Shown here piece after piece: positions 4,150 through 31,929 of a stretch of 32,000 bases of DNA (positions within the stretch are counted from its first letter, which is position 1; the number at the start of each line of letters is the position of its first letter). The notes below the pieces were generated by a model. The model did not search any database. It saw only the letters and a program-made list of their open reading frames with translations, and was not told the DNA's origin. Location: contig FP565575.1 in the NCBI GenBank assembly GCA_000091165.1, forward strand, positions 2,074,376 to 2,106,375, written 5' to 3'. The translations under genes were made by a program, and so were the position numbers. The stretch is from Candidatus Methylomirabilis oxygeniifera. Its GTDB lineage: Bacteria > Methylomirabilota > Methylomirabilia > Methylomirabilales > Methylomirabilaceae.

Positions 4150-4171
4150 GCTAAAGACTGAAGGCTGAAGG

Positions 4172-5377: not shown

Positions 5378-5396
5378 GGTGTAGGGGTTAGGGTAT
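5369..5396 (+). repeat. Second, degenerate copy of the G-rich heptamer repeat (AGGGTAT AGGGTGT AGGGGTT AGGGTAT)
   Basis: Read directly. It overlaps the coaBC stop (again ...AGGGTATAG) and runs into the TAGGAGG ribosome-binding site of the downstream UDG gene. It has four G3-4 tracts. Confidence 0.8.
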
Positions 5397-5409
5397 TAGG
5401 AGGCGCAGT

Positions 5410-6144: not shown

Positions 6145-6197
6145 CGATCCGATCGAGATAACACAATTTAATACACAATACTCGAAGGAGGTGTGAC

Positions 6198-6527: not shown

Positions 6528-6542
6528 GTGCAGAGGAAGGCC

Positions 6543-7517: not shown

Positions 7518-7574
7518 GGTGTTCGTAGGTATATCATGCCCAGGCGTGACCATAAGAGAAAGGAGAAGTATAGG

Positions 7575-8270: not shown

Positions 8271-8461
8271 GGCCAGCCATCAGATGACACAAGCACCTGT
8301 GGCGATCAGGCAGAAAATCTGATCTGGCGCAAGACCCAGGCCGACCGTGGACCGGTAGCGAATAACCGTCACCGGTCTACGGTCGGGAAGCCACCTCCAG
8401 GCGGTGCTCGCTTTTACTACAGTCCTTTACAGATAAAGGCCGCCTCAGCTATAGTCCGGGT

Positions 8462-11062
8462 ATGGCCACCAAAGCCGATCATCTTCTCGCCGACATCGTC
8501 CTGCCGGTTCCACCACGAAGAGTCCTGACGTATACTATCCCGCCCTCCATGCAGCAACAGGCGGATGTCGGCAAGCGAGCACTCGTCCCGCTCGGCCCTC
8601 GCCTGGTGACCGGATATATTGTCGGCCTCGACACGTTCAGTGACCAGCGTTCAGCAACCAGCCGTCAGACTTCAGAGCTCAAGCCGATCGACGCAATCCT
8701 GGACATCGAGCCGCTTCTGGATCACCACATGCTGGATTTGACGCGCCTGGTCGCGGACTACTATATGACGTCGTGGGGGTCGGTGATTCGAACAGCCCTG
8801 CCGCCCGGGATCGATCGCAGTACGGTCCGTACTGTTCAGCTTGTCGAGCCGCAGGACATGGCTCCGCATGCTGTAAGCGGAGAACAGCTCGCCCAGGAGA
8901 TTGGATGGTTCGACCCCTCTCAGCAGCAGATACTGACTACACTGCACGCACAACGCCGGATGTCGCTGGCATCGCTCAAACGGCAATGGCCGAACGAACA
9001 GGTTGACCGGCTTATCCGGTTGCTTGTCAGGCACAACCTGGCAAGGATAGAATATCAGGAACGTCTACCCTCAGTTCGGCCCGTCTTCCGACCCTTGCTC
9101 AGCCTGGCGGTCGACCGGGCCGCAGCGGAGATCGAGTTGGCCGCGCTCCGACGCCGGGCACCGCGACAGGCCTCGCTACTTGATCGGCTGTTGCAATCCG
9201 GTGTAGCGCTCACGTCCGCAGAGGCTGCCATCATTGCCGGCGCCTCCGGGATCCGCAGTCTTATCGCGAAAGGCGTCATCCGCCGCACCACGGAGGAGAT
9301 CGAGCGATCGCCATGGGACGAGACGACTATTGTCACAAGCGCCTGGCCGGAACCCAACTCAGCCCAGCACACGGCAATTCACGGACTCCTGGAGGGACTC
9401 TCGTCAGGTGCATTTCTCCCGGCGCTGCTCTATGGCGCAACGGGGAGCGGAAAAACCGAGGTCTATCTCCGGGTCATCGGCGAGGTGGTACGACAGGGAG
9501 GGCAGGCGCTGATACTCGTTCCGGAAATCGCCCTAACTCCTGTCACTGCCGATCGATTCCGCTCCCGCTTCGGCAATCGGGTTGCGTTGTTGCACAGCGC
9601 TCTCTCACCCGGCGAGCGGCTGGATCAATGGCGTCGCATCAAGCGCGGACTGGCCGACATTGTCGTAGGCACGCGGTCGGCGGTCTTCGCTCCCCTCTCC
9701 CGCCTTCGCCTCATCGTAGTCGATGAAGAGCACGACGCATCCTACAAGCAGCAGGATGAGCCGCACTATCACGCAAGAGACGTAGCATTGACCAGAGGAG
9801 AGATGTTGGGAATTACCGTCCTCCTCGGCTCCGCCACCCCAAGCTATGAAAGCATTCATCGCGCAAAGGAAGGGGCTTATCGACTGTTTCGACTTCCTGA
9901 GCGGGTGGAGGACAGGGCGCTGCCTCGGATGACACTGATCGATATGCGCGAAGAACGCCTGGCCCGGCATGTTTCAGGCCGGAATGCGCGGCGCGAGGCG
10001 CAAAATCCCCCCACCCCCCCTTCACAAAAGGGGGGCGCGGGGGGATTTGGAGGACGACAGGCGGAGAAGGGGCCGCTTATTTTCTCCAGGCGGCTGGCGG
10101 ACGCGATCAAGGAGGTACTGACAAAAGGGGAGCAGGTCCTGCTGTTCATCAATCGCCGAGGCTACGCCAGGTTGTTACTCTGCCGCGAGTGTGGTTTTAC
10201 CTTGCGGTGTCCGCATTGCAGTGTCTCGCTTATCTACCATGCGGTGGATAGCAGGATGCGCTGCCACTACTGCGATTATCGAGAACGGCCGCCGGAACAT
10301 TGTCCTCAGTGCGGTGGGATTGCGTGTGGATGGCTCGGATACGGAACACAGCAGGTCGAAGCCGCTGCTCGACTCCTCGTCCCGAATGCATCCATCGTCA
10401 GGATGGATCGCGACACCACCAGGCAACGGCGCGCACACCAGCAGATTCTCGCGGGCGTCCAGCAGAGGCGCACGCAAATTCTTATCGGGACGCAGATGGT
10501 CGGGAAAGGACATGACTTTCCCGGCATCACGTTAGTCGGCATCCTCTCCGCGGACGCCTCCATGCAGATCCCGGATTTCAGAGCCGGAGAGCGGACCTAT
10601 GCGCTGCTCACACAGGTGGCCGGGCGGGCCGGCCGCGGGAACCGCCCCGGCCACGTCATTGTCCAGACCTATAATCCGGAGCACTATTGCATCCTCGCGG
10701 CCCGCAATCACGATTATGAAGCGCTGTACGCGCTCGAGCGGCCGCTCAGAGAGGAGCGCGGTCTTCCTCCCTTCGGCTTTCTTGTCCTGCTCCTGATCAC
10801 GTCTTCACATGAGGGGCAGGCACAAGAAAAGGCTGAGCAACTCGCCGGTCTGCTCCTGGAGCGGGCCGTTTCGCCCCTTACTGTCGAGGGGCCGGCGTCG
10901 GCGCCGGTGTATCGATTAAAAGGACGCTATCGCTGGCAGATCCTCGCCAAAGGTCCTGACCCGAGTGCGCTGCATAACTGGGTCAAAGAGACGATTGCCC
11001 TGCTTCCGCCGTCAGGACAGGCCGGCATCGACATTGATGTCGATCCGGTCGATCTGTGTTGA
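8462..11062 (+). CDS. priA: Primosomal protein N' (replication-restart helicase PriA)
   Basis: Walker A LLYGATGSGKTEVYL, DEEHD box, and the Cys-rich zinc-binding insert CRECGFTLRCPHCSVSLIYH...CHYCDY...CPQCG. 866 aa. It carries an unusual low-complexity insertion (see findings). Confidence 0.93.
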   Translation: MATKADHLLADIVLPVPPRRVLTYTIPPSMQQQADVGKRALVPLGPRLVTGYIVGLDTFSDQRSATSRQTSELKPIDAILDIEPLLDHHMLDLTRLVADYYMTSWGSVIRTALPPGIDRSTVRTVQLVEPQDMAPHAVSGEQLAQEIGWFDPSQQQILTTLHAQRRMSLASLKRQWPNEQVDRLIRLLVRHNLARIEYQERLPSVRPVFRPLLSLAVDRAAAEIELAALRRRAPRQASLLDRLLQSGVALTSAEAAIIAGASGIRSLIAKGVIRRTTEEIERSPWDETTIVTSAWPEPNSAQHTAIHGLLEGLSSGAFLPALLYGATGSGKTEVYLRVIGEVVRQGGQALILVPEIALTPVTADRFRSRFGNRVALLHSALSPGERLDQWRRIKRGLADIVVGTRSAVFAPLSRLRLIVVDEEHDASYKQQDEPHYHARDVALTRGEMLGITVLLGSATPSYESIHRAKEGAYRLFRLPERVEDRALPRMTLIDMREERLARHVSGRNARREAQNPPTPPSQKGGAGGFGGRQAEKGPLIFSRRLADAIKEVLTKGEQVLLFINRRGYARLLLCRECGFTLRCPHCSVSLIYHAVDSRMRCHYCDYRERPPEHCPQCGGIACGWLGYGTQQVEAAARLLVPNASIVRMDRDTTRQRRAHQQILAGVQQRRTQILIGTQMVGKGHDFPGITLVGILSADASMQIPDFRAGERTYALLTQVAGRAGRGNRPGHVIVQTYNPEHYCILAARNHDYEALYALERPLREERGLPPFGFLVLLLITSSHEGQAQEKAEQLAGLLLERAVSPLTVEGPASAPVYRLKGRYRWQILAKGPDPSALHNWVKETIALLPPSGQAGIDIDVDPVDLC
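10003..10048. repeat. Imperfect C-run/G-run palindrome embedded in-frame in priA
   Basis: AAATCCCCCC-A-CCCCCCC ttcacaaaa GGGGGG-CGC-GGGGGGATTT. The outer 10-nt arms are perfect reverse complements. It is translated as QNPPTPPSQKGGAGGFG. Confidence 0.85.
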
Positions 11063-11071
11063 GCAAGCAGC

Positions 11072-11124
11072 GATCAGCCGTCAGCTTTCAACGTCCTTTG
11101 CTGACGGCTGATCATTTGTCTTTT
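11072..11124 (+). terminator. Rho-independent terminator after priA
   Basis: Perfect 14-bp stem GATCAGCCGTCAGC (11072..11085) / GCTGACGGCTGATC (11100..11113), followed by ATTTGTCTTTT. Confidence 0.75.
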
Positions 11125-11132
11125 GACCGGTG

Positions 11133-11954
11133 ATGTATTACAGTAGCAACGTCATGGCTAAAATGGTGGGCTGGCGAGAGGCTGATTCGTGGCTTCACAA
11201 GGGAGAATCCCTGGATGGCCTTGGCTCTTCCGATCTGAAAGTCATCCAGAGCCTGACGGGTTTCCGCCATTCGATGGATGCGCTATTGCTGGCGCAGTGG
11301 GCCGCGCCGCGATCGACCGACCGGGTCCTTGATCTCGGCTGCGGAAACGGCGTGATCGCCTTCCTGCTGGCTCATCGACATCCGGAGCTTCGCATAGTCG
11401 GGCTTGAGGTTCAGCCCGCCTTGGCCGATCGGGCCAGGCGGGGAGTGCACCTCAACGGGTTACAGGGCCGCATCGAGATCGTGGAGGGCGACCTCCGTCA
11501 GGCCAAAGGGCTGCTACCGATCGCGGGTTTTGATATGGTTCTCTGTAACCCGCCATATCGAGAGTTGGCCAGCGGACGGCTCAGTCCGGATCCGGAGATC
11601 CGACAGGCCAAACATGAGTTGACCGCCACCCTAGAGGAGGCGATTGCGGCCGTCCGATACCTGCTCGCTCCAAAAGGGCGAGCGTGCCTGATCTACCATG
11701 CCTCACGGCTCGTCGATCTGCTGAGCAGTCTCAGGGCCGTGCGGCTGGAACCGAAGAGATTGCGGTTGGTCCACTCTTACCCCGGCGCCGAGGCGGAACT
11801 GAGCTTGGTGGAGGCGCGACGGCACGGGCGACCGGGACTGCAGATCCTTGCCCCTCTGTTCGTCTATCAGGCACGAGGCGGCCCTTTATCGCCTGACATG
11901 GAAGCGATCTATCGCGGTTTGACCTTGTCTGAAGTTCGGAGTACAGTCGCATGA
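11133..11954 (+). CDS. Class I SAM-dependent N6-adenine methyltransferase, tRNA1(Val) m6A37 (YfiC/TrmN6)-like
   Basis: SAM motif I VLDLGCGNGVIAF and the catalytic NPPY tetrapeptide (VLCNPPYRE). Start ambiguous (GTG 11130, ATG 11133, ATG 11154). The stop overlaps the next start (ATGA). Confidence 0.75.
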   Translation: MYYSSNVMAKMVGWREADSWLHKGESLDGLGSSDLKVIQSLTGFRHSMDALLLAQWAAPRSTDRVLDLGCGNGVIAFLLAHRHPELRIVGLEVQPALADRARRGVHLNGLQGRIEIVEGDLRQAKGLLPIAGFDMVLCNPPYRELASGRLSPDPEIRQAKHELTATLEEAIAAVRYLLAPKGRACLIYHASRLVDLLSSLRAVRLEPKRLRLVHSYPGAEAELSLVEARRHGRPGLQILAPLFVYQARGGPLSPDMEAIYRGLTLSEVRSTVA

Positions 11955-12808
11955 GTCGATACACCATCGCGCTTGCTCAGATGAACCCGGCCCTCGGCGA
12001 TCTGGAACGCAATCTTGCTCTGCATGAAAAGACGGCCGAGGAGGCGATCGGCCGCGGAGCCGGTCTGCTGATCTGTCCTGAATTGAGTCTGACCGGATAC
12101 TTTCTCAAAGACATCGTCTCATCCGTAGCCCTTCCCTTGGCCAGTCCCATTCTCGACAGACTCAGAGACTTGAGCCGTCGTATCGATCTTGTGGTCGGGC
12201 TGGTTGAAGAGTCGCCCGAACATCTGCTCTACAATGCCGCCCTCTATCTCTCCAGGGGCGAGATCCGACACGTCCACCGGAAGGTCTACCTGCCCACGTA
12301 CGGGATCTTCGATGAGCAACGATATCTCGCGGAGGGCAGTCGGATCAGAACATTTCAAGCGGACATCGGTCGATCTGCGATCTTGATCTGCGAGGATATG
12401 TGGCATCCATCGGTCGCGTGTATTGCCTCTCTCGATGGGATGGACATCCTCATCTCGCCCTCCGCCAGTCCGGGTCGCGGGGGTCTTGAGGAAGGTCGCA
12501 CGTTCGCGAATGCCAGAGCCTGGGAAACGATCAATCGGGCCTATGCCCAGCTCTTTACCTGCTATGTCCTGTACGCGAATCGTGTCGGTTACGAGGATGG
12601 CGCCTGCTTCTGGGGCGGCTCAGAGGTGATCGCCCCATCCGGCGAACCGGTGGCCAAGGCAGAGTACCTCAGCGAGCAGATCCTGATAGCCGAAATCGAC
12701 TCGGCAGAGGTTCGGCGGGCCAGAATAGTGAATCCGCTGCTTCGAGACGAGCGAATGGATGTCACGCTTCGAGAACTGGAGCGGGTAAAGCGAGAGGTGG
12801 CCAGGTGA
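11951..12808 (+). CDS. Carbon-nitrogen hydrolase (nitrilase superfamily), probable glutaminase partner of NadE
   Basis: Glu/Lys/Cys triad contexts [29 protein letters not shown]. It has 4-nt overlaps with both neighbours (ATGA at 11951, GTGA at 12805), implying translational coupling to nadE. Confidence 0.85.
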
Positions 12809-13825: not shown

Positions 13826-14383
13826 CTACTTGAAAGCATAGTTTATGTAGACGTGGTACGCTATGAGCAGCAACAACGCCATAGATAATCCGACATGGGC
13901 GCTGATCCACACCGGTCTGTACCAGGGCTTGTGGATTTTGACGATCTGAAAATTGAACAAGCCGGTGAGGAATGCCAGCAACAACGTCAGGCTGAGGATT
14001 TCGAGATAGCCGTATCCCAAGGTTTGGGAATGGCCAAAGAAAAACAACAGAAGCAGAGCGCCAAAAAGTTTGTGGCGACCCATCATGGTTGCGGCATTGC
14101 GCTGCTCCCCCTGAGCGCGCTTCACGGAAAAACGCCACTGATAAAGAACAAACGCAAACAATCCGAAACCTGTGGCGAGCTTATACGTGTTGTCGTCTTG
14201 CAGTCCGGTCAACAAGGTCCACTGCCACCCGGTCGATTGCTGGACAATCAAAGCCACCAGCAGGAACAGGCCCAGCCAAAAATACCCCTTGGTGGGTACA
14301 CCGGACCTCAGGCTGTCCGTCAGTGACGATTTAAGTCGGTTGAAGCCTTGTATAACGACCAGGCTTTTAACGGGCAACGACAA
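13826..14383 (-). CDS. His-rich 4-TM integral membrane protein (possible b-type haem/redox membrane subunit)
   Basis: C-terminal ~185 codons of track ORF 13826..14683. Four hydrophobic helices carry conserved-looking His residues (GRHKLFG, FFFGHSQ, ISAHVG, IAYHVY). The first ~100 codons of the track ORF overlap the upstream gene, so I place the start at an in-frame TTG (14383 or 14377) overlapping that gene's stop. The function is inferred only. Confidence 0.5.
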   Translation of the reverse strand: MSLPVKSLVVIQGFNRLKSSLTDSLRSGVPTKGYFWLGLFLLVALIVQQSTGWQWTLLTGLQDDNTYKLATGFGLFAFVLYQWRFSVKRAQGEQRNAATMMGRHKLFGALLLLFFFGHSQTLGYGYLEILSLTLLLAFLTGLFNFQIVKIHKPWYRPVWISAHVGLSMALLLLIAYHVYINYAFK

Positions 14384-15245
14384 GAGCGCCCCCTTCTTTG
14401 TTCGCTGCTGATCCGGGTTTTGGCTTGCTTGCCAGTGAGCTGAGCACCGCCAAAGTGTGCGGGGCTGTGCGCCTGGCGATTTCTCCCATGAACACCTCAG
14501 AGCTCGGCAGGAAATAACCCTCAGCCGGCCAGCGTTCGCCAATGGCGGGGGGATTGGCAAATTTCCGCGCCTTTTCAAGATAAGACTCGTAGGCTTCCTT
14601 GAAGCCTTGGCGTAAGGCGTCGAGCGTGCGGAGCAACTCGTCCATGGACACGCTGCCGCTTGGATACATCCACGTGGTCGCACCCATCACATCATTAAGC
14701 TTCCAGTCGTGCTTGGGTGATTGTTCGTGCTTGTTATGGCATTGAATGCAGCCCTCGACGACCGCCACATCACTGAACATGGCGACCTGCATTTGAATGT
14801 CGGGCATGAAAAAGAATTGCGGCTTAAGGGTTTGCTTGACCACCTGGAATTTTTCCAACTGCAGCCCCTCGAAGCGGTTCGCTGAGTTGACGGGATAGTC
14901 CGACCCCAGAAACAGGCTGAGCGGCGTCGGGTTCTTTTCCAGGCTTTTCGCCGTCTCACGTAGAAACAATGCGGGCAAAGGACCGGCCTCTACGTCCGCC
15001 TCACGCCAACGCTCGTCGAACTTCAAACCGGTCTGCTTGCCCGCGCCGACCACTTCCTTGGTCCACATTGCTCTCACCACGTCGTTTTCCGCCTTGAGAA
15101 TCTCAAACATCCGTTCCACCGGGATGGCCGCGTCGGCGGCCTTCTGCTCTTCCAATGGCGGCGGGGCACTGACAAACAGATAGATGCTCAAGGCACCCAG
15201 CGCCAGACAGGCGATCCAGAAGTTTTGTTTAGCCATCGTGACCAT
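14367..15245 (-). CDS. Membrane-anchored/periplasmic c-type haem protein with DUF3365 (Tll0287-like, PAS-like fold) domain
   Basis: Single CxxCH (VVEGCIQCHNKH) near the C-terminal third, preceded by S-D-Y-P-V-N-S-A-N-R-F and followed by D-W-K-L-N-D-V-M-G-A. This is the pattern I associate with DUF3365. N-terminal anchor AKQNFWIACLALGALSIYLFVSA. Start at ATG 15245 or 15236, overlapping the upstream stop by 8-17 nt. Confidence 0.65.
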   Translation of the reverse strand: MVTMAKQNFWIACLALGALSIYLFVSAPPPLEEQKAADAAIPVERMFEILKAENDVVRAMWTKEVVGAGKQTGLKFDERWREADVEAGPLPALFLRETAKSLEKNPTPLSLFLGSDYPVNSANRFEGLQLEKFQVVKQTLKPQFFFMPDIQMQVAMFSDVAVVEGCIQCHNKHEQSPKHDWKLNDVMGATTWMYPSGSVSMDELLRTLDALRQGFKEAYESYLEKARKFANPPAIGERWPAEGYFLPSSEVFMGEIARRTAPHTLAVLSSLASKPKPGSAANKEGGALVVAR

Positions 15246-15933
15246 CCTGTTTTGCTTTGTAGTGAAGGGTTGTCCCATAAGGGGAGGGGCCACCGTCAAA
15301 ATAGGCGCGGATTTTCTCTTTCGGCATTCGCTTGTCGACCGATTTCTCAGTCTTCATGACGTGGTTGCCGTGGAAGTCGTGGCAGCCCAGGCAGGAGTCC
15401 CATTGCTTGTCGGCGATCAGGTCCGCATGGGACACGTCGATGGGATCTTTCTTTAAGCGGGTGTCCTTGTGGCAGTTCACGCAATAGTCGGTCTCCGCCA
15501 ACGTGACACGCCTCCCCTGGTGCTCGGCGTGGCAAGAGACACACTGATGGGGACGCAGCTTTTCCCGAGCCTGGCTGAAACGGGGCTCGAGGAAGCGATA
15601 GACCGGGTGGCGGTCATTGGGTCGCTCGTGACAGGCCATGCAGTCCGCATTACCTACGGGAAGCCGTCCGAAGTAGGCGGGCACTTTACGCCAACCAACG
15701 GCATGGCGCAGATTGGCCTGAATCTGCTGGCGGAGGCTGCCTGGTGCGTTTTTATGGCAGGCCGCGCAGGCAAGCTTGCCGTGTCCTGTATTCATGGGTC
15801 CTTTCGCATGAAACCACTCCCCGACGGGAAGCACGGTAAACGCCAGGATCGCAAATCCCAAACAGAAGCCGATCGCATAGGCGCGGTTTTGCCATTTCCG
15901 TGCCCCTCCAAGTTTCGCTCTCATGGCCGCCAC
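15229..15933 (-). CDS. Membrane-anchored pentahaem cytochrome c (NapC/NirT/NrfH-like architecture)
   Basis: Five CxxCH motifs in 234 aa: CAACH, CMACH, CVSCH, CVNCH, CLGCH. N-terminal TM helix AYAIGFCLGFAILAFTVLPV. Confidence 0.85.
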   Translation of the reverse strand: MAAMRAKLGGARKWQNRAYAIGFCLGFAILAFTVLPVGEWFHAKGPMNTGHGKLACAACHKNAPGSLRQQIQANLRHAVGWRKVPAYFGRLPVGNADCMACHERPNDRHPVYRFLEPRFSQAREKLRPHQCVSCHAEHQGRRVTLAETDYCVNCHKDTRLKKDPIDVSHADLIADKQWDSCLGCHDFHGNHVMKTEKSVDKRMPKEKIRAYFDGGPSPYGTTLHYKAKQDGHDG

Positions 15934-16044
15934 GTCAAGCTACGCGCCAGAAACTCACGCTGATGCATTAGGCCTTATCATGTCTGTCTACTGTGTAGCT
16001 TACCGGTAGCGAAGATGAAACGTCTATTCACCCTCCGAATGAAG

Positions 16045-16090
16045 AGGGTGGGGGTGATCCGAAGGCAACCACTTGGCTCACCCCCACCCT
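16045..16090. repeat. GGGTGGGGG/CCCCCACCC palindromic hairpin element
   Basis: AGGGTGGGGGTGA (16045..16057) and TCACCCCCACCCT (16078..16090) are perfect 13-nt reverse complements with a 20-nt loop. The element lies between the 95-aa ORF and the pentahaem gene. Confidence 0.85.
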
Positions 16091-16122
16091 ATGCTTCCGG
16101 CCCTCAAGAGAACTTCTGAGAG

Positions 16123-16410
16123 CTACTCGATGACCTCCATAATCCGACTCTGCACATTTGTGGCTAACTCCATGAGCTCGCTACGAAGCGCCTTGCGCTC
16201 ATCGAGGGCCAAAATCTTATCGAAGTTGCTGAAGTCGCCGACCTCAATCGTAATGACCCGCTCCAACTTATTCGCCAAGTGGTCCCCATAGATGTGGAAC
16301 CTCGAGACCCCTTGGTTGGCGAGCCAGAATTTTTTCATTTTACCGACTAAGAAGGCATCCAATGCGTCTTCTTTTCCTGGTGCGACTTCACACATGATGT
16401 GGTAGATCAT
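16123..16410 (-). CDS. Small (95 aa) cytoplasmic alpha/beta protein, ferredoxin-like-fold candidate, function unknown
   Basis: ORF with a GGAGGAGC-type RBS region (AAAGGAGGAGCAACG before the ATG at 16410). No signal peptide. The alternating beta/alpha pattern MIYHIMCEV...RFHIYGD...ITIEVGDF is a fold guess only. Confidence 0.5.
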   Translation of the reverse strand: MIYHIMCEVAPGKEDALDAFLVGKMKKFWLANQGVSRFHIYGDHLANKLERVITIEVGDFSNFDKILALDERKALRSELMELATNVQSRIMEVIE

Positions 16411-16644
16411 CGTTGCTCCTCCTTTGACATCGGGTGTACGTTATGGTTGCCTTTCCTCGCCCCTGCACACGTCATCGATCACCCCCTCTCGGGATCAGTG
16501 CGTCGAACTGCCGCATACTCATCGATCGCTTCGAGTGCTCTTGGGGGGCGCGCCGACTGTCGTCATTGAGTGCGATCCTGACGCACGCCTGCTACTGTAG
16601 CACTTAGCCATCATTCAGCGCACCGCTGCCATTGGGCTTAACGA

Positions 16645-17025
16645 CTATCGTCCTCCGGTAAAGCCTCTGACATAGACAACCAGATCCTTGATCTCGGACT
16701 CGGAAAACTTTAGCCCATATGCCGGCATCCCCCCCTTACTACCCTGCTTAATACTCCTGAAGAGGGCGTCATCGGACCGTGTTTGCATAAAGGCTGAGTT
16801 GGTTAAGTCTGGCACCCTAAACATAAAAAAAAGTGCTAATGCCTGAAACCCATTCCCCTTGCCGCTGGTGCCGTGGCATCTGGAGCATTTTGACTCGAAG
16901 TTCGACTGCCCGCTTACCGCACTTTTCGTCTCCGCGCCGGACGCGGAAGAGGCCCCCACAACGAACAACATCACCATCACGCCTAACCACTGGCAACGGA
17001 GCCGGGACAGAAAAAAAACGCGCAT
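16645..17025 (-). CDS. Monohaem class I c-type cytochrome, periplasmic
   Basis: CSRCHG haem motif plus a distal Met context GSKGGMPAYG. I prefer the ATG at 17025, 8 nt after GAGGAGGG, which gives the signal peptide MRVFFLSRLRCQWLGVMVMLFVVGASSASGAE. Confidence 0.8.
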   Translation of the reverse strand: MRVFFLSRLRCQWLGVMVMLFVVGASSASGAETKSAVSGQSNFESKCSRCHGTSGKGNGFQALALFFMFRVPDLTNSAFMQTRSDDALFRSIKQGSKGGMPAYGLKFSESEIKDLVVYVRGFTGGR

Positions 17026-17202
17026 CGTAATTGCCCTCCTCTCATCTAAAGGTGTAACCTGTGCGTGCATCGTTTTGTCACTCGTGTATACGTGGTTAGT
17101 GCGCTAACTCCATGATACCAAAGGGTCACGACCGGAACAATGCTTTTAAGCTGTAACGTTCGGGGTCGGATCTCACGTGTGAGGCGTCCGCGTTGACAAA
17201 GC

Positions 17203-17279: not shown

Positions 17280-19706
17280 TTAGAATGCCTCGTCGCCGGC
17301 CGCCCAAGCCTCCCGCTCCTTCGCCTTCTCCCTGTCGTAGATGGTCCATTCACCTTCCTCGACGACAGAGGCTTCGCGGACCATCCGCCCTGCTCTTGAC
17401 AGAATGAAATAGACGAGAGGCAACACGCCGCCAAACAGGAAGACCGCGCCGCCGATCGTGCGCATCCACGTCAAGGTAATCCACACACTATCCGTGACGT
17501 GCGCCTGTGCTCGGGCAGCCCAAAGGCCTTCCTTGAAGACGGTTGCAACCTGGTACAGACCGACAGGGAACAAGTCCAACATCATCATCAGCACCAAGCC
17601 GACCTGCAACGACCAGAAAATGCCCTTGATCAGCTTCTCATTCCAGGCAGAGCGCTGGAACAGGTGCTGGCAGGCAAACAGCATACCGGCAATGGCGATG
17701 TTACCCTTGACACCGAACATGGCGGCATGGGCATGGTTGCCGGTGAGGTAGGTGCCGTGCTCATAGTAGTTGACGATGGGCAGGTTGATCAACGAGCCGA
17801 AGACACCCGCGCCGAAGATGTTCCAGAAGTTGACGGCAAGAATGAACGTCCAGACGCCGTCCATCACGAAGCGCTGCTTACCCTCGGCAATGTTTTCATG
17901 GGCCTTGGTCCGCTCCGTCCGCATCTTCCAGGCGTCCAGGGTGATCAACAGCAGCGGCAGCACCTGCATGGTGGAGAAGACGCTGCCCAGTGCGATGATC
18001 CCTGTCGGCTTGGCGATCCAGTAGAAGTTGTGGGAGATCCCGATCAGGGCGGTTACCAGGAACATCATGACGGCCAGGAAGATAACCCGCTCGGCCATCG
18101 CCCGGTTGACCAGACCCATCTGCACCAGCATGTACCCAACGATACAGGTGGTGAAGACCTCGAAGGTGACCTCAACCCACATGTGAATGTTCATCCACCG
18201 CCAGTAGTCGGCGATGGCGAAGTTCTGCGATGGGGTCATGAACATCCCGAAGAACAGGAACAGCACCATGATACCGCTGCCGTAGAACAGCCAAGCCGGC
18301 ACTGACCAGAGGTTCTGGCTGGTGATCCAGGGCTTCACAGCGCGGAAGATGATGTAGACCCACAGACAGAACGAGGCCAGCATCAGGATATGCCAGAAGC
18401 GGCCCAGCTCCAGGAACTCCCAGCCCTGGCTGCCGAACCAGTAGGCCATGTCGTCGGTCATGTACCCCGTGTGGCCAAGGTAGATGCCGAACAGCGCGCC
18501 TGCGCCGACGATCAGACATAGTGTAAAGAGCAGGTTGATCAGGAACCGCTGGCCGTTCGGCACCTTCGAAATGCGGGGCAGGAAGAAGAGAGTGTAGCCG
18601 ACCCAGGCCATGAAGAACCAGTAGATCTGCACAATGGTATGCCACCCGCGAGTAACGGTGAAGGGGATGGTGAACCCCAATACCGTTGTGGCGATGGCAC
18701 TACCCGGTCCACCGCCGACGAAATCTTCGGCGCTCAGGATACCGGCCAGCACCTGCACCAGGAACAGGATGACAGCGAACGCAAAGAACTTATAGGTGGC
18801 GCGCTGAGTCGGCCGCACATAGGCATCGCCCTTGTTTTCAAGGTCGACCGTGGTGAGCGACCAATCGCGCCCGTTGAACGGCTCGCCGGGCAGGACCTTC
18901 ATCTCCCCGTAGACGTACAGGACCAGCATGGTGCCACAGAACAGCACGAAGATCGAGATGAAACTCCAGAGATAGGTCTCGAACGTCGGAGTATTACCGA
19001 CTAGCGGATCGGGTGGCCAGTTGTGAGTGTAGGTATAGTCAAAACCCGGCCGATTCGCCCCGGAGACCCAACCTCCCCAGAAGAAATATCCCGCTAGTGC
19101 TTTGAGGTCTTCAGGGCTACTGATATGATTCTCGATCCTGCCCTTCATGAACGCTTCTTCGTAGGTGGCATCCGTAAACATGCGCGTATAGTGCGTGATC
19201 AACTCCTGATACGCAAAGACCTGAGCCGGATTGATACGGATGATGTTAGCAGCCGCATCATACCCGTTCTCATGGATTTCGCGCTTGACCCTGACCGAGA
19301 TCATATCGCGATCCGCCTGGGTGACGGGACGCTCCTTCGCGATCTCATTTTCGTAGAACTTGCTCATTGATACATAGGTATGGTGTAGTGCTTCAGCGGT
19401 GAAATCCGGACCGCGTTCACCGCCGTCTCCCCAAAAAGAGCCATAGGTCATCAGACCTTTCAGATGAAAGACCTGTTTCCCGCGCTGGATCTGCCACTCG
19501 GGGATGACGGTTTCTCCGGTAGATGACAAGACATAATTGGTCAATGGCGGAGCTGAGGTATAAGTCCATACACCGAGGGCAACCAACCCAATGACACTGA
19601 TAACGGTCACGATCAAGGCGTGAAGCCACCAGTACTTCTTAATCAGCAAGGCTTGGCCGAAGGTCCTATTAGTTTTCCCCATTCCACTACTTGAACTAGA
19701 TCTCAT
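17280..19706 (-). CDS. nod: qNOR-like haem-copper oxidase with substituted quinol and FeB sites; putative nitric oxide dismutase, copy A
   Basis: Track ORF 17280..19727. I prefer the ATG at 19706, 6 nt after AGGAGG. It has a NorB-type core (RGWH; HMWVEVTFEVF; YYEHGTYLTGNHAHAAMFG) and a long N-terminal NorC-like extension with no CxxCH, which is qNOR architecture. It reads SAEDFVGG where qNORs read AHYxVEG, and ISHNFYW where NORs read GxGHHxY. Confidence 0.9.
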   Translation of the reverse strand: MRSSSSSGMGKTNRTFGQALLIKKYWWLHALIVTVISVIGLVALGVWTYTSAPPLTNYVLSSTGETVIPEWQIQRGKQVFHLKGLMTYGSFWGDGGERGPDFTAEALHHTYVSMSKFYENEIAKERPVTQADRDMISVRVKREIHENGYDAAANIIRINPAQVFAYQELITHYTRMFTDATYEEAFMKGRIENHISSPEDLKALAGYFFWGGWVSGANRPGFDYTYTHNWPPDPLVGNTPTFETYLWSFISIFVLFCGTMLVLYVYGEMKVLPGEPFNGRDWSLTTVDLENKGDAYVRPTQRATYKFFAFAVILFLVQVLAGILSAEDFVGGGPGSAIATTVLGFTIPFTVTRGWHTIVQIYWFFMAWVGYTLFFLPRISKVPNGQRFLINLLFTLCLIVGAGALFGIYLGHTGYMTDDMAYWFGSQGWEFLELGRFWHILMLASFCLWVYIIFRAVKPWITSQNLWSVPAWLFYGSGIMVLFLFFGMFMTPSQNFAIADYWRWMNIHMWVEVTFEVFTTCIVGYMLVQMGLVNRAMAERVIFLAVMMFLVTALIGISHNFYWIAKPTGIIALGSVFSTMQVLPLLLITLDAWKMRTERTKAHENIAEGKQRFVMDGVWTFILAVNFWNIFGAGVFGSLINLPIVNYYEHGTYLTGNHAHAAMFGVKGNIAIAGMLFACQHLFQRSAWNEKLIKGIFWSLQVGLVLMMMLDLFPVGLYQVATVFKEGLWAARAQAHVTDSVWITLTWMRTIGGAVFLFGGVLPLVYFILSRAGRMVREASVVEEGEWTIYDREKAKEREAWAAGDEAF

Positions 19707-20001
19707 CGCTACCTCCTGTGGCCACACCTTTTACTGAGGTGGTCACATTCCCATTTCCACTGCTTGTTCTTTTCTTTCCATCCAATCTTTCCATCCAAGT
19801 CATCGTTGATGCCTATCGCGTCGGGGGCGCACGTACTTGGTCGGCAAACCGGAGACCGCGGGTTAGCCGCCCAAAGCCTGATCGACCATCCGGTAACCCT
19901 TTGCTCAACCTCTCGATCCACGTCATAGGCCTCATGAGCGCACTCCTCCTTGACTCCAGCGCCATCAGCTTACAGTCAAAATGTAGACTCTCCGGCAGGG
20001 C

Positions 20002-20043
20002 TTGTAAATTGGATGATCGGCTTAATTTTCGATGCAAATGCAT
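20002..20043 (-). promoter_or_regulatory. Conserved 42-bp cis element upstream of nod copy A (+ strand: TTGTAAAT-N21-GATGCAAATGCAT)
   Basis: It has the same end motifs and the same 21-nt spacing as the element at 23247..23288 upstream of copy B. It contains the near-palindrome ATGCAAATGCAT. It lies ~300 nt upstream of the start codon. Confidence 0.55.
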
Positions 20044-20475
20044 TAGTCCTGTGGAGTGTAATTGTTGGCCTCAGAACCAGTAAGCCGTGTTAACCACCCG
20101 GCGGGACAAATCGGCAGAGGGTCTGTCCAGGAGGGGTGAGACGACTATCTTTTCAAGTCACTTGCATCGGCCGGGATAAGCTCCAGGCGTTACTATAGAA
20201 CACCGTTATAGGTATTATAGGACGCGGTCGACACTAAGTCAAGCGGTCGCGTCCCATAGTGGCCAGATGACCCACGTTAACTCTTCGGCGCGATAATAAC
20301 AACGTTCTACTTATTCTTATTGAGGATGGGGAAGATTTGGAGGGTGTGGAGATTGTCGGGAGAGCGCACTTCGAGCGAGCAAAGGCGTGCATAGGACTAC
20401 GAAAGCGGTCAGAGGTCAGGCGGGTATCCGGCGGCTTGTGCGGCTGGCCAGCCTCAGAAGAAGGGATGGGGGAGC

Positions 20476-20526
20476 ATAAAAAACAATACCCCCCGGCACA
20501 ACATCTCTGTTGTGCCGGGGGGTATT
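20476..20526 (-). terminator. Rho-independent terminator after nod copy B
   Basis: Perfect 18-bp stem AATACCCCCCGGCACAAC (20485..20502) / GTTGTGCCGGGGGGTATT (20509..20526) with a 6-nt loop. On the - strand it is followed by GUUUUUUAU (20476..20484). Confidence 0.85.
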
Positions 20527-20566
20527 GAAAGTGCGTGCTACTTACGTGCAGACTAAGAACGTTAGA

Positions 20567-22999
20567 CTAGAACGCCTCGTCAGAAGCGGCCCAAGCCTCT
20601 CGCTCTTTCGCCTTCTCTCTGTCGTAGATCGTCCACTCGCCCTCTTCAACGACGGCAGCTTCGCGGACCATCCGTCCAGCCCTCGACAGAATGAACCAGC
20701 ACAGAGGCAGAACACCACCGAACAGGAAGACCACGCCGCCGATTGACCGAAGCCAAGTCAGCGTGTGCCATACCTCGTTGGTGACGAACGACTGCTGGCG
20801 GCCATACCAGAACCCATACTGGAAGATGTGGGCGAGCTGATACAGACCGACCGGGAACATATCCATGAGCATCATCATCACGATGCCGACCTGCAGGGAC
20901 CAAAAGACAGTCTTGATCAGCTTCTCATTCCAGGCAGAGCGCTGGAACAGGTGCTGGCAGGCAAACAGCATACCGGCAATGGCGATGTTACCCTTGACAC
21001 CGAACATGGCGCCATGGGCATGGTTGTTGGTGAGGTAGGTGCCGTGCTCATAGTAGTTGACGATGGGCAGGTTGATCAACGAGCCCATGACACCGGCACC
21101 GAAGATGTTCCAGAAGTTGACGGCGAGGATGAACGTCCAGACACCGTCCATCACGAAGCGCTGCTTGCCCTCAGAAAGGTGCTCATGGGCCTTGGTCCGC
21201 TCCGTCCGCATCTTCCAGGCGTCCAGGGTGATCAACAGCAGCGGCAGCACCTGCATGGTGGAGAAGACGCTGCCCAGTGCGATGATCCCTGTCGGCTTGG
21301 CGATCCAGTAGAAGTTGTGGGAGATCCCGATCAGGGCGGTTACCAGGAACATCATGACGGCCAGGAAGATAACCCGCTCGGCCATCGCCCGGTTGACCAG
21401 ACCCATCTGCACCAGCATGTACCCAACGATACAGGTGGTGAAGACCTCGAAGGTGACCTCAACCCACATGTGAATGTTCATCCACCGCCAGTAGTCGGAG
21501 ATGGCGAAGTTCTGCGATGGGGTCATGAACATCCCGAAGAACAGGAACAGCACCATGATACCGCTGCCGTAGAACAGCCAAGCCGGCACTGACCAGAGGT
21601 TCTGGCTGGTGATCCAGGGCTTCACAGCGCGGAAGATGATGTAGACCCACAGACAGAACGAGGCCAGCATCAGGATATGCCAGAAGCGGCCCAGCTCCAG
21701 GAACTCCCAGCCCTGGCTGCCGAACCAGTAGGCCATGTCGTCGGTCAGCATACCAGTGTGGCCGGCATAAATCCCGAACAGCGCACCGGCGCCAACGAGC
21801 ACGCACAGCGCAAAGAGTAGGTTGATCAGGAACCGCTGCCCGTTGGGTACCTTCGAAATGCGGGGCAGGAAGAAAAGGGTGTAGCCAACCCAGGCCATGA
21901 AGAACCAGTAGATCTGGACGATGGCATGATAGCTTCGGACGACGCTGAAGGGGATGACGAGTCCGAACGCGCCCAAGATCGCTTCACCCGGTCCACCGCC
22001 GACGAAATCCTCGGCGCCCAGGATACCGGCCAGCACCTGCACCAGGAACAGGATGACAGCGAACGCAAAGAACTTATAGGTGGCGCGCTGAGTCGGCCGC
22101 ACATAGGCATCGCCCTTGTTTTCAAGGTCGACCGTGGTGAGCGACCAATCGCGCCCGTTGAACGGCTCGCCGGGCAGGGACTTCATTTCGCCATAGACGT
22201 ACAGGACCAGCATGGTGCCAGCGAACAGCACGAGGATCGAGAGGAAGCTCCAGATGTACGTCGCGTACGTCGGGAGGTTGCCGGCATCAGGATCATACGG
22301 CCAGTTGTGGGTATAGCTGTAGATCTCGCCCGGTCGATTTGCGCCGGCTACCCAGCCGCCCCAGAAGAAGTAACCCGCCAATCCCTTGATGTCCTCCGGG
22401 TTGCTGACATAGCTCTGAATCCGACCCTTCTGGAATGCCTCTTCATAGGTGGGATCGGTGAACATCTTGGTGTAATGGTCGACCAATTCATTATACGCAA
22501 AGATCTGGGCATCGTTCAGGCGGATGACGCCTGCTGCTGCGTCATAACCGTTCTGATGAATCTCTCGCTTGACCTTTCCCGCGATCCCGTCCTTCTCGTC
22601 CTGGGTTGCGGGGCGGCCCTGCTCTTTCTCAATCTGCATCTCATAGTACTTGCCCATGGAGACGAAGGTTCGATGCAGAGCTTCTGCGGTGAAATCCGGT
22701 CCGCGCTCTGCGCCGTCACCCCAGAAGGATCCGTAGAGCATCAGACCCTTCAGGTGAAACACCTGCTTTCCACGATTCATGGAATGCTCAGCAATGACCA
22801 CGTCCCCTGATTTGCTTACGAAGTTAACCAGAGGGGGAGCGCCCGCGTAGGTCCAGACGCCGAGAGCAATCAAACCGATGGTGCTAATCGCGGTAACGAT
22901 CAAAGCATGAAGCCACCAATACTTCTTGATAAGTAGTACTTGTGCAAATGTCCTCTCGTTCTTGCCCTTTGCTGCAGTTCCGCTGGGATTCGGACTCAT
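20567..22999 (-). CDS. nod: qNOR-like haem-copper oxidase with substituted quinol and FeB sites; putative nitric oxide dismutase, copy B
   Basis: Track ORF 20567..23038. I prefer the ATG at 22999, 5 nt after GGGAGGT. Same architecture and same diagnostic substitutions as copy A (GAEDFVGG; ISHNFYW; NHAHGAMFG). Confidence 0.9.
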   Translation of the reverse strand: MSPNPSGTAAKGKNERTFAQVLLIKKYWWLHALIVTAISTIGLIALGVWTYAGAPPLVNFVSKSGDVVIAEHSMNRGKQVFHLKGLMLYGSFWGDGAERGPDFTAEALHRTFVSMGKYYEMQIEKEQGRPATQDEKDGIAGKVKREIHQNGYDAAAGVIRLNDAQIFAYNELVDHYTKMFTDPTYEEAFQKGRIQSYVSNPEDIKGLAGYFFWGGWVAGANRPGEIYSYTHNWPYDPDAGNLPTYATYIWSFLSILVLFAGTMLVLYVYGEMKSLPGEPFNGRDWSLTTVDLENKGDAYVRPTQRATYKFFAFAVILFLVQVLAGILGAEDFVGGGPGEAILGAFGLVIPFSVVRSYHAIVQIYWFFMAWVGYTLFFLPRISKVPNGQRFLINLLFALCVLVGAGALFGIYAGHTGMLTDDMAYWFGSQGWEFLELGRFWHILMLASFCLWVYIIFRAVKPWITSQNLWSVPAWLFYGSGIMVLFLFFGMFMTPSQNFAISDYWRWMNIHMWVEVTFEVFTTCIVGYMLVQMGLVNRAMAERVIFLAVMMFLVTALIGISHNFYWIAKPTGIIALGSVFSTMQVLPLLLITLDAWKMRTERTKAHEHLSEGKQRFVMDGVWTFILAVNFWNIFGAGVMGSLINLPIVNYYEHGTYLTNNHAHGAMFGVKGNIAIAGMLFACQHLFQRSAWNEKLIKTVFWSLQVGIVMMMLMDMFPVGLYQLAHIFQYGFWYGRQQSFVTNEVWHTLTWLRSIGGVVFLFGGVLPLCWFILSRAGRMVREAAVVEEGEWTIYDREKAKEREAWAASDEAF

Positions 23000-23246: not shown

Positions 23247-23288
23247 TTGTAAATCCTGCGACTGAATCAATCCGCGATGCATATGTAC
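23247..23288 (-). promoter_or_regulatory. Conserved cis element upstream of nod copy B, proximal copy (TTGTAAAT-N21-GATGCATATGTAC)
   Basis: Read directly. It matches 20002..20043 in end motifs and spacing, and is repeated 69 bp further upstream. Confidence 0.55.
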
Positions 23289-23315: not shown

Positions 23316-23358
23316 TCGTAAATCCTGCGATTGACTCAATATGCTGATGCATATGCAC
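23316..23358 (-). promoter_or_regulatory. Conserved cis element upstream of nod copy B, distal copy (TCGTAAATCCTGCGATTGACTCAAT...GATGCATATGCAC)
   Basis: Direct repeat of 23247..23288. They share GTAAATCCTGCGA.TGA.TCAAT and GATGCATATG.AC. It is bracketed by a perfect 10-bp inverted repeat, CCTCAGTGAG (23304..23313) / CTCACTGAGG (23361..23370). Confidence 0.55.
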
Positions 23359-23569: not shown

Positions 23570-24472
23570 TCACGCTGCCTTATTGGGCTCCTTTGGAGCC
23601 CCTGGCGCCTGTCCTGCCTCCGCGCGAGCCGCAGGCTCCCGCCGTGCAATCTCGTTCACGTAGGCGACAGCCTCCAGTCGTGAGTGAACCTTGAGCTTAC
23701 TGAAGATGTTCTGGATGTGGTTTCTCACTGTAGTTTTACTGATGAAAAGCTGCTCCGCGATAGCCGCCGTCGTTGCGCCCGTCCGCATCAGGGTAACAAC
23801 CTGCAGCTCTCGCCGAGTTAAGTCACCGACAGGAGATACGGTCTTTTCGCTCGCCGTAAGTTGAGTCTGAGCCAGTTGTTGCCGAACAAGCACCTCAAGC
23901 TGGTGCGCCGCAGTGACATCACGGAAGAGATGAACAACTGTCGGGGGTTGGTTGTCCTCACAGGGAAGAGCAACACAGCTCACATCGATCCATAGCGGTT
24001 TACCCGTCCTCGTCCGAGTAGCCATCTCGAAATGCTGGATCAGATCTCCACGGCTCAACGTCATCTTCAGCGGGCAAGGCCACTGACAAAGCTGATTGCC
24101 GTTACTATCACGGCCGTTGAAGAACTCACGGCATTGCTGTCCGACAACTTGTTGCGCGGAAGCTTCCAGGATAGTTTCAGCGGCTTGGTTGCAGAACAGA
24201 ATCTCTCCGGTCGGCGCACTGACAAACACGCCATCGGCCGTCTCAGCGAAAAGCTTGAAGGCGGCTTCGCGTGGTTCCGTAGGCTGTCCGCTTCCCGGCT
24301 CGTTTCGCGAATCCTTTTCATCGACTTCATCAACTGCAGGTGTAAGCCGATGCTCGTCTTCGCCGTCTATGCGGTAGTCGACTGCCTCGCCTGTACGGAC
24401 ACCGCCATCACGCCGCAGGCCTGCCCTGGAAATTCGCACCGAACGTTTCGGTCCGTTGCCTGAATGCGCCAT
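23570..24472 (-). CDS. PAS-domain / LuxR-type HTH transcriptional regulator
   Basis: C-terminal LuxR/FixJ HTH LTRRELQVVTLMRTGATTAAIAEQLFISKTTVRNHIQNIFSKLKVHSRLEAVAY. The central segment is PAS-like (FKLFAETADGVFVSAPTGEILFCNQAAETILEASAQQVVGQQCREFF...) and contains six Cys. No receiver domain. Confidence 0.85.
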   Translation of the reverse strand: MAHSGNGPKRSVRISRAGLRRDGGVRTGEAVDYRIDGEDEHRLTPAVDEVDEKDSRNEPGSGQPTEPREAAFKLFAETADGVFVSAPTGEILFCNQAAETILEASAQQVVGQQCREFFNGRDSNGNQLCQWPCPLKMTLSRGDLIQHFEMATRTRTGKPLWIDVSCVALPCEDNQPPTVVHLFRDVTAAHQLEVLVRQQLAQTQLTASEKTVSPVGDLTRRELQVVTLMRTGATTAAIAEQLFISKTTVRNHIQNIFSKLKVHSRLEAVAYVNEIARREPAARAEAGQAPGAPKEPNKAA

Positions 24473-30594: not shown

Positions 30595-31863
30595 CTATTT
30601 GTACTGGGTAGTCGGCCGCCATTTGCCTCCGCCGGACAGGGCCGTTGCGCCACCCTCGAAGGACGGAATGACCGGGCCGCCGACCTCAACAATTTGTCTG
30701 TTCTTATCCGCATCAAAGAACTCAAAGAGTCCGCCGTACCGGCTGTCTGAGTCATAGATCAACTCAGCCAACCGCTGATATTCCCATTCCGCATCGGTCG
30801 CATCTATCGACATCGTTACGGTCTGGCCTGGAGGGATGGGACCGGCCGGCTCCACCTTGATTTTGAGTCGCGAGTCAGGGAAGAGGGCCGGATCCCGAAA
30901 CTGCAGGTTGGCCGTGATGAATCCTCCCAATTGCTGAGGCCTGTTTGAACCGTTTGTGACCTCTATCACCATCCCAAGAGAACGTCCAGGTACGGTATAG
31001 ACCGCTGTGACAGGCCTGGCCTTCACCGTGGCATGGGAATACGGCGTAAACTCTGTCGTGGGCTTCAGTTCGGGAGTATCCATCCGACCGGTCTGCAGCG
31101 GGATGGTGATTGGGTAGGCGCCGTTCGTCGTGACGTAGCCGATAGCGACGATGAGGACCGTGGCGATCATCAGTACGAGTCCAAGCGTCCGATCGCCGGG
31201 GCTAACAAGCTCCTCCTCAGGTACCACTCCCACCTGGAAGAGACGTCGCGTAAATGGCCGTCGTACCCACCACAGCAACCAGAACACACCGACAAAAGTC
31301 CAGAGGAGCCACCAGCCGATGATCCGACCTTGCCCATGGACCTCCATATTCACTGTCGTACCATCAATGGTGGTAACGTTATTGGTGAAGTTACTCCAGT
31401 CGCCATCGACGGTGACGAACTCGCCTCCACCGACCAGGGGCCCTCCACCCTCGATATTCACCATCGGGTGAACGTGATAGGTCCCGGTGACCCGGCCCAT
31501 AATATTCATTCTATAATCATAGTCTCCGCCAAGTTGAGTACTGGTGGCGTTGATGACCGGCATGCCATTCATCCATGCCTCTTTCTTGAGCATTGATGGC
31601 CCAGGCACGGAGTAATGGAGAAAGATCGATTCGGGGGTGTTTACGGCCCTCGGCCATTCACTAAATGTATGGAACTTTCCCGTCAGATCCATGGTCTCGC
31701 CAGGCTGTACCCGAGCTTTTGACCATTTCGTATCGTAGAACGTTATTGTACGCATCCGAAGAAACGGCTCTTGCGATCGCTCGCCATGCGCCCATGCCGT
31801 TCCAGCGGATACGGCGATCACTCCAAGCAAGATCGCCGACAACGCCGCTCGTCCTATCCTCAT
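30595..31863 (-). CDS. pmoB: Particulate methane monooxygenase subunit B
   Basis: I prefer the ATG at 31863 after GGGAGGATAACG. The signal peptide ends ...GTAWA, then HGERSQEPFLRMRTITFYD (compare the canonical mature PmoB N-terminus HGEKSQ..F.RMRT). HxH copper-ligand motif TYHVHPMVNIEGGGP. Two internal TM helices (IIGWWLLWTFVGVFWLLWWV; LGLVLMIATVLIVAIGYV). Two cupredoxin-like halves. Confidence 0.92.
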   Translation of the reverse strand: MRIGRAALSAILLGVIAVSAGTAWAHGERSQEPFLRMRTITFYDTKWSKARVQPGETMDLTGKFHTFSEWPRAVNTPESIFLHYSVPGPSMLKKEAWMNGMPVINATSTQLGGDYDYRMNIMGRVTGTYHVHPMVNIEGGGPLVGGGEFVTVDGDWSNFTNNVTTIDGTTVNMEVHGQGRIIGWWLLWTFVGVFWLLWWVRRPFTRRLFQVGVVPEEELVSPGDRTLGLVLMIATVLIVAIGYVTTNGAYPITIPLQTGRMDTPELKPTTEFTPYSHATVKARPVTAVYTVPGRSLGMVIEVTNGSNRPQQLGGFITANLQFRDPALFPDSRLKIKVEPAGPIPPGQTVTMSIDATDAEWEYQRLAELIYDSDSRYGGLFEFFDADKNRQIVEVGGPVIPSFEGGATALSGGGKWRPTTQYK

Positions 31864-31929
31864 CGTTATCCTCCCAGGTTCGTGGGTAAGCGTCAACACA
31901 TTCGCATCATAGCGCCACATGGGGTTGCC

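Follow-up and report, generated by a model that had tools for sequence, protein, structure and literature searches.

Whether an enzyme with a haem and a non-haem metal can convert nitric oxide (NO) directly to N2 and O2 in the dark is a question that bears on both the nitrogen and the methane cycle and that has been posed since 2010 at the nod locus of the methane oxidiser Candidatus Methylomirabilis oxyfera, a pair of tandem genes whose products (Nod, the putative NO dismutases) resemble quinol-dependent NO reductases (qNORs). The two founding proteins, DAMO_2434 and DAMO_2437 (CBE69496 and CBE69502), were described as sharing 84% amino acid identity, as retaining every histidine except one, where Asn stands instead, as having Gln in place of the catalytic Glu together with changes in the proton channel, and as lacking a proper quinol site (Ettwig et al., 2012; PMC3413370). 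In M. oxyfera their transcripts and proteins rank with the most abundant, whilst the canonical paralogue DAMO_1889 is weakly expressed (PMC3413370), and nod already serves as an environmental marker gene. Here we analysed a stretch of 32,000 nucleotides from contig FP565575.1 (hereafter the window) which carries this gene pair. Since the proteins encoded in the window are identical to the founding sequences of Ettwig et al. (2012), it is the type locus of the NO dismutase hypothesis; the gene pair, its substitutions and the hypothesis itself were published between 2010 and 2012 and no new object is described. What we add are the gene-conversion tracts, the transcription-unit structure, the neighbourhood statistics and the retention of the Trp and Arg of a recently proposed outer quinol (Qo) site.

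DAMO_2434 (nod paralogue 1; 17280..19706, minus strand) encodes 808 amino acids from an ATG and DAMO_2437 (nod paralogue 2; 20567..22999, minus strand) encodes 810, with a Shine-Dalgarno sequence, GGAGGT, ahead of both start codons (5 nt upstream in the case of DAMO_2434). Exact-sequence look-up of the open reading frame (ORF) products returned CBE69496.1 and CBE69502.1 at 100% identity over their full length. An earlier annotation made from the sequence alone (the first-pass annotation) had given these same lengths and ribosome-binding-site-supported starts, and had cited the locus tags DAMO_2434 and DAMO_2437, which the accessions, as mapped in PMC3413370, match exactly. Pfam detected PF22085 (NorB_cytochrome_c-like; residues 59-232 of DAMO_2434 and 60-235 of DAMO_2437; E ~1e-45) followed by PF00115 (COX1, haem-copper-oxidase subunit I; residues 303-755 and 306-757, respectively; E ~1e-49), whilst a search of both proteins for CxxCH found none in either. 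Both thus have the qNOR-like architecture that had been proposed for them, a haem-free NorC-like domain fused to a haem-copper-oxidase core, and each Nod is a single-subunit, 14-helix membrane protein in which the NorC-like domain is periplasmic. The closest match in the PDB of an AlphaFold2 model of Nod (predicted local distance difference test score, pLDDT, 76; predicted template modelling score, pTM, 0.82) was the qNOR structure 3AYF (template modelling (TM) score 0.84/0.90), followed by the Alcaligenes and Neisseria qNORs and then by cNOR NorB and the cbb3 oxidases. A search of Nod against NCBIfam gave no useful family assignment.

Residue columns were assigned from sequence alignments, namely an HMMER alignment to the Geobacillus stearothermophilus qNOR 3AYF (E = 5e-129) and two MAFFT alignments, the larger of 141 sequences, all of which were concordant. 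The Nod group used for comparison (n = 122) comprised the two window ORFs and 120 cluster representatives with 61-100% identity, and the canonical group comprised 17 full-length representatives of qNOR-like type, obtained when 1.84 billion proteins were scanned exhaustively with HMMER. Positions below follow DAMO_2434, in which the key residues, with their DAMO_2437 equivalents after the stroke, are E327/E330, G331/G334, H356/H358, H508/H510, E512/E514, H559/H561, N560/N562, Q581/Q583, H658/H660, H660/H662, W747/W749, R749/R751 and G753/G755.

The haem centres, low-spin haem b and catalytic haem b3, are intact and the non-haem metal site is altered. The haem b ligands His356 and His660, the haem b3 ligand His658 and the FeB ligands His508 and His559 are all retained, as are Glu512 and the Ca-site residue Glu430 of DAMO_2434. 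The column of the third FeB ligand, His560 of the G. stearothermophilus qNOR, is occupied by Asn560 in DAMO_2434 and by Asn562 in DAMO_2437 (AAC codons at 18027..18029 and 21314..21316, respectively, minus strand), which leaves five of the six histidines that characterise qNOR (EC 1.7.5.2), and the column of the catalytic Glu581 is occupied by Gln581 (17964..17966, minus strand) and Gln583 (21251-21253, minus strand). These changes covary almost perfectly across the clade: position 560 is Asn in 121 of the 122 Nod-group sequences and His in all 17 canonical ones, and position 581 is Gln in 122/122 as against Glu in 17/17. A single Nod-group sequence has Thr rather than Asn at position 560.

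At the former quinol (Qi) site in transmembrane helix (TM) 3 both proteins read AEDFVG (18714..18731 in DAMO_2434 and 21998..22015 in DAMO_2437, minus strand), with Glu327 in place of the quinol-site His328 and Gly331 in place of Glu332 (Geobacillus numbering). In TM14 of DAMO_2434 the segment W747-M-R749-T-I-G-G753 (17448..17468, minus strand) has lost the quinol-site Asp, Gly753 standing for Asp746, and has kept its Trp and Arg (Trp-x-Arg codons at 17460-17468 in DAMO_2434 and 20747-20755 in DAMO_2437, minus strand). No Nod-group sequence has His at position 327 (0/122, compared with 16/17 canonical sequences), the residue there being variably E, T, M, N or F, and position 753 is Gly in 118/122 as against Asp in 16/17. 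Arg749 alone therefore survives of the His/Arg/Asp set of the qNOR quinol site. Mutation of His295, Arg705 or Asp709 in the qNOR of Persephonella marina resulted in complete loss of activity (PMC13087809), and since the homologous mutants are inactive, the loss of His and Asp beside haem b should abolish canonical quinol oxidation by Nod. The residues that follow the former quinol site, 332-348, form the least conserved stretch of Nod (0.55 compared with 0.86 in the core, across the 122 sequences) and were poorly predicted in the AlphaFold2 model (pLDDT <50); their low conservation fits a quinol pocket released from selection.

Both window proteins hence carry the features by which the Nod clade has been delimited in print, i.e. 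FeB His to Asn, catalytic Glu to Gln and loss of the quinol residues, and the case made by the first-pass annotation for a candidate NO dismutase whose quinol site is destroyed and whose FeB site is remodelled is the argument of Ettwig et al. (2012). The annotation had placed the AEDFVG motifs and the Asn codons correctly to the base in both ORFs, and its assignment of SHN and AEDFVG to the FeB-ligand and quinol-site columns was upheld by the HMMER and MAFFT alignments. Its list of altered sites, correct for the quinol His and Glu and for the FeB His, overlooked Glu581 to Gln and Asp746 to Gly, and of the motifs it gave as haem-ligand contexts (RGWH/RSYH, HMWVE and NHAHAA/NHAHGA), all of which are present, HMWVE contributes through its His (His508) an FeB ligand rather than a haem ligand. 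Two distant representatives, P0138 (53% identity) and P0139 (44% identity), also carry Asn560, Gln581 and Gly753; P0139, which still has His at position 327 beside the Asn, Gln and Gly, may represent an evolutionary stage between qNOR and Nod.

Dismutation of NO to N2 and O2 by Nod, the published explanation, is the best supported and in our judgement a probable one, if by no means secure; Ettwig et al. (2012) themselves termed the dismutation chemistry speculation (PMC3413370). Its support comes from physiology, namely the N2 end product and the bypass of N2O in an organism whose genome has no recognisable N2O reductase, the 18O-labelled O2 obtained from labelled nitrite and the very high expression of both genes (PMC3413370). 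Whilst the gene identity, the architecture, the substitutions and their clade-wide covariation are established above, the following scheme for the chemistry, the metal and the source of the O2 is inferred from the literature. Nod would not draw electrons from quinol; two NO molecules would bind at the centre formed by haem b3 and a non-haem metal, the latter held by His508 and His559 with Asn560 at the third position and Gln581 nearby; an N-N bond would form as in the NO reductases (NORs), and the oxygens would recombine, releasing N2 and O2 without external electrons or protons. The O2 would feed the particulate methane monooxygenase (pMMO). A pmoB gene, encoding subunit B of this enzyme, is located 7.6 kb from the nod pair (30595-31920, minus strand; Pfam E = 9e-121), and the proposed producer and consumer of O2 are therefore near neighbours.

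Several points weigh against dismutation, and they have to be read together with the rival view that Nod is still an NO reductase, making N2O or another reduced product with a changed electron donor, in which case electrons would reach haem b either from periplasmic c-type cytochromes on the NorC-like domain or through a residual outer quinol site at Trp747/Arg749. The haem b ligands H356 and H660, together with Glu512 and Arg749, are invariant in the Nod group (122/122), so simple decay of the quinol site is not the picture, and an electron-transfer haem is not obviously needed by a pure dismutase. Position 747 is aromatic (Trp or Tyr) in 117/122 Nods, and W747/R749 align with Trp718/Arg720 of AxqNOR, where a second, outer quinol site was proposed in 2026 from cryo-electron microscopy (PMC13087809). 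In M. oxyfera, DAMO_2434 is directly followed on its own strand by cytochrome genes, and foraminifera expressing Nod are reported to make N2O (cited in bioRxiv 2023.11.21.568154). No enzyme assay, metal analysis or biochemical characterisation of Nod was found in papers to mid-2026, and PDB chain sequences and structures released to April 2026 held canonical qNOR and cNOR relatives only and no Nod; a 2024 preprint likewise notes that published biochemical characterisations of Nod do not exist (bioRxiv 2023.11.21.568154) and a July 2026 review refers to Nod as 'as-yet uncharacterized', in agreement with the first-pass annotation, which had noted that activity of the purified protein was absent from the literature. 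Against a reductase stands the physiology of M. oxyfera, which forms N2 as its end product, bypasses N2O and shows neither N2O turnover nor a recognisable N2O reductase in its genome (PMC3413370). The cytochrome cluster is moreover missing beside nod in the Methylomirabilota genome L001 and in four other phyla, and its pentahaem/Tll0287-like gene pair, kept in 79 of 80 genome loci, has an adjacent Nod-type gene in only two. Replacement of the third FeB His and of the catalytic Glu581 in essentially all Nods argues against unchanged NOR chemistry, and we regard a retained reductase function as unlikely, although not so unlikely as to be neglected.

A further view holds that Nod is not the source of O2 but an NO-binding buffer, detoxifier or sensor, with N2 and the methane oxidant arising elsewhere, for instance if pMMO used NO directly or if a different enzyme of the NOR family were responsible. 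NO-dependent pMMO chemistry was not fully discarded by Ettwig et al. (2012; PMC3413370), and other candidate enzymes exist since M. oxyfera also encodes NORs of the qNOR, sNOR and gNOR families (PMC11214002), which again counts against dismutation by Nod, as may the release of O2 from NO reported in Pseudomonas aeruginosa (PMC8608891). The pMMO of M. oxyfera, however, has a canonical appearance, and direct use of NO does not agree with the stoichiometry observed (PMC3413370). N560, Q581, H508, H559 and the haem b3 ligand are near-invariant in the Nod group, and purifying selection on the remodelled active site, which spans at least nine phylum-level labels, speaks for a role in catalysis; the very high expression of both genes would also be costly for a mere sensor. 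A bystander role for Nod therefore strikes us as highly improbable. Were NO dismutation by Nod, the explanation we prefer, to be correct, it would constitute a fourth biological route to O2 and a way round N2O, and would explain 'aerobic' hydrocarbon oxidation in anoxic habitats.

The two paralogues are 83% identical overall, in nucleotides and amino acids alike, and this figure conceals a mosaic. Codons 272-326, 423-602 and 663-692 show 99-100% nucleotide identity and zero synonymous differences, whereas the periplasmic domain (codons 1-241) shows 62-76% nucleotide identity with ~11-16 synonymous differences in every 30 codons; were the flanking rate to apply, the probability of zero synonymous change over 180 codons would be ~1e-40. 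The paralogues were compared at three loci, i.e. the window and two other Methylomirabilis genomes (L001, 6928-12427; L003, 6776-12424), and in the latter two core identity was 0.93-1.00 between paralogues within a genome as against 0.91-0.96 between orthologues of different genomes, whilst the N-terminal domain and residues ~321-360 and 721-760 track paralogue or lineage identity. Because in all three genomes the core is closer between the paralogues than between orthologues of different genomes and the N-terminal domain is not, the pattern indicates that recurrent gene conversion homogenises the segment carrying His508, His559, Asn560 and Gln581. That the identical tracts stem from assembly collapse was considered and judged unlikely, as two independent assemblies of metagenome-assembled genomes (MAGs) show the same core-periphery pattern with different tract boundaries.

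While the cores converge, each paralogue retains its own version of the periplasmic domain, of the loop behind the dead quinol site and of the TM14 region. This might mean that the nod paralogues are kept as a functional pair rather than out of simple redundancy, either as a heterodimer, which is conceivable because dimers are the reported form of active qNORs, or as isoforms docking different partners, possibly the neighbouring c-type cytochromes by way of the strictly conserved haem b. We consider such a pair doubtful, with only an outside chance of proving right. If cytochrome-docking isoforms did exist, the chemistry of Nod in Methylomirabilis would not be purely electron-neutral dismutation.

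The tandem nod genes look like separate transcription units, because a conserved terminator follows DAMO_2437 and sigma-70-like matches precede DAMO_2434. The terminator is an intrinsic hairpin with a 20-bp stem and a T-run (20484..20527, minus strand), 40 nt after the DAMO_2437 stop codon, and is kept with compensatory changes in L001 and L003. A candidate sigma-70-like promoter of DAMO_2434, TTTACA-17-TACATT, was identified by its consensus match at 19980..20008 (minus strand), and a second candidate with a better match lies at 20214-20242 (minus strand). Approximately 25 nt upstream of the -35 element of DAMO_2434 is the motif CATTTGCATCG (20030..20040, minus strand), and further copies of this CATWTGCATCG-type motif occur upstream of DAMO_2437 (23275-23285 and 23345-23355, minus strand). 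Upstream of both genes CATWTGCATCG is followed by TCGCAGGATTTAC / ATTTACAA, an arrangement that is duplicated ahead of DAMO_2437, and in both regions it stands ~25 nt before a TTTACA -35 element. The motif has six matches in the window compared with 1.2 expected and is also conserved in L001 and L003; as a candidate operator common to both genes, it might serve the PAS-LuxR regulator encoded next to them. The spacer between the nod genes is 860 bp (19707-20566) and ranges from 640 to 860 bp among genomes. ORFs within it (e.g. 19718-20083) were considered as genes, had no Pfam match and were unconserved between genomes, and were treated as non-coding; since these ORFs are unconserved and the spacer varies in length, the two locus tags between DAMO_2434 and DAMO_2437 may not represent real genes. 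Rfam and tRNA scans of the window gave no matches.

Directly upstream of the nod pair is a gene for a protein with PAS and LuxR/GerE-type helix-turn-helix domains (23570..24472, minus strand), a candidate regulator only, which occupies the same position, along with tandem nod genes, in loci L001, L003 and L008. When conserved partner genes of nod were sought in six other loci, only this PAS-LuxR gene and the tandem copy recurred, and these within Methylomirabilis alone, whilst in the Gamma-, Delta- and Alphaproteobacteria and Acidobacteria loci examined nod is a lone gene with unrelated neighbours. Because its neighbours are unrelated across phyla, Nod resembles the qNORs in working as a single subunit with no partners dedicated to it. 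The multi-gene 'system' suggested by the first-pass annotation finds no support, given the separate transcription units and the lack of a conserved partner gene beside nod in other phyla. The contig of L008 (DATMXF010000229.1), labelled 'Patescibacteria group bacterium', has its nod locus at 1510-12055, 97% identical to DAMO_2434, and also carries the whole cytochrome cluster and the PAS-LuxR gene; it is probably a mis-binned Methylomirabilis contig. L010, labelled Methylococcaceae, may be similarly mis-binned (77-83% identity to the cytochrome pair).

The cytochrome cluster downstream of DAMO_2434 comprises five genes (13826-17070, minus strand), encoding a monohaem cytochrome c (16645-17070, minus strand), a 95-amino acid protein with no assigned role, a pentahaem cytochrome c (15229-15933, minus strand), a Tll0287-like haem-c protein that contains CIQCH, and a membrane protein resembling cytochrome b. 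L003, L008 and L009 also have the cluster, which is absent at this position in L001, where nadE directly follows nod. The distribution of the pentahaem/Tll0287-like pair (14367-15933, minus strand, in the window) was surveyed by a scan of GTDB genomes with the pentahaem protein and tblastn of all cluster members, which gave the 80 loci referred to above (L008-L087); their hosts include Methylococcales, Flavobacteriaceae, Myxococcota, Chloroflexota and Nitrospirota, the two with an adjacent Nod-type gene are of Methylomirabilis type, and a weak haem-copper-oxidase match (26% identity) lies ~5 kb from the pair in L055. On these counts the cluster was rejected as a Nod-specific module. A small membrane protein follows the pair in several loci, and the tags DAMO_2431-2433 had no mention in the literature searched. 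Taken together, the concerted evolution of the core, the separate units with a shared motif, the absence of cross-phylum partners and the retained haem b and Trp/Arg could help in the design of experiments on Nod.

Set against known systems, the locus is the same as the published Nod DAMO_2434/DAMO_2437 (Ettwig et al., 2010, 2012) in its sequences, tandem arrangement and signature, and differs in nothing. The qNOR/NorZ enzymes of G. stearothermophilus (3AYF), Alcaligenes xylosoxidans (8BGW) and Neisseria meningitidis (8ZGP) are, like Nod, single polypeptides in which a NorC-like N-terminal domain free of haem is joined to a haem-copper-oxidase core of 12 helices, and match it structurally with TM-scores of 0.81-0.84 (query) and 0.87-0.90 (target) at 28-31% identity. 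Shared with them are the ligands of haems b and b3, His508, His559, Glu512, the Ca-site Glu430 and Arg749, whilst Nod departs from them at the active site, where it has Asn for His560, Gln for Glu581, Val for Gly513 and, ahead of the His pair, Ile-Ser for Thr-Gly, and at the quinol site, where Glu stands for His328 and Gly for both Glu332 and Asp746. The NorB subunits of the cNORs of Pseudomonas aeruginosa (3O0R_B) and Roseobacter (4XYD_A) share the core fold over Nod residues ~300-770 (E ~1e-27; target TM-score 0.84-0.86), but in cNOR the FeB site has all three His, and in place of a fused N-terminal domain there is a NorC subunit of its own that carries haem c, usually accompanied by norQ/norD accessory genes. 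No NorC match was found by Pfam among the 25 other window ORFs examined and no norQ/norD-like gene was seen, the sole AAA protein among the examined ORFs having the FtsH domain set (M41 peptidase).

Chlorite dismutase (Cld) is related to Nod by functional analogy only, being a haem enzyme for which formation of an O-O bond and light-independent release of O2 have been proposed or shown; its soluble fold is unrelated, its substrate and mechanism are different, and no sequence relationship between the two is known. The analogy between Cld and Nod has been discussed previously (PMC3413370). The gammaproteobacterium HdN1, Muricauda ruestringensis and the environmental nod clades bear the same four-site signature as the window proteins, as do the 120 cluster representatives (61-100% identity), which derive from MAGs labelled as Acidobacteria, Gamma-, Delta- and Alphaproteobacteria, Planctomycetes, Chloroflexi, Nitrospinae and others. 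In the non-Methylomirabilis loci L004-L007 nod is single-copy and has neither PAS-LuxR nor cytochrome neighbours, unlike the tandem pair of the type locus.

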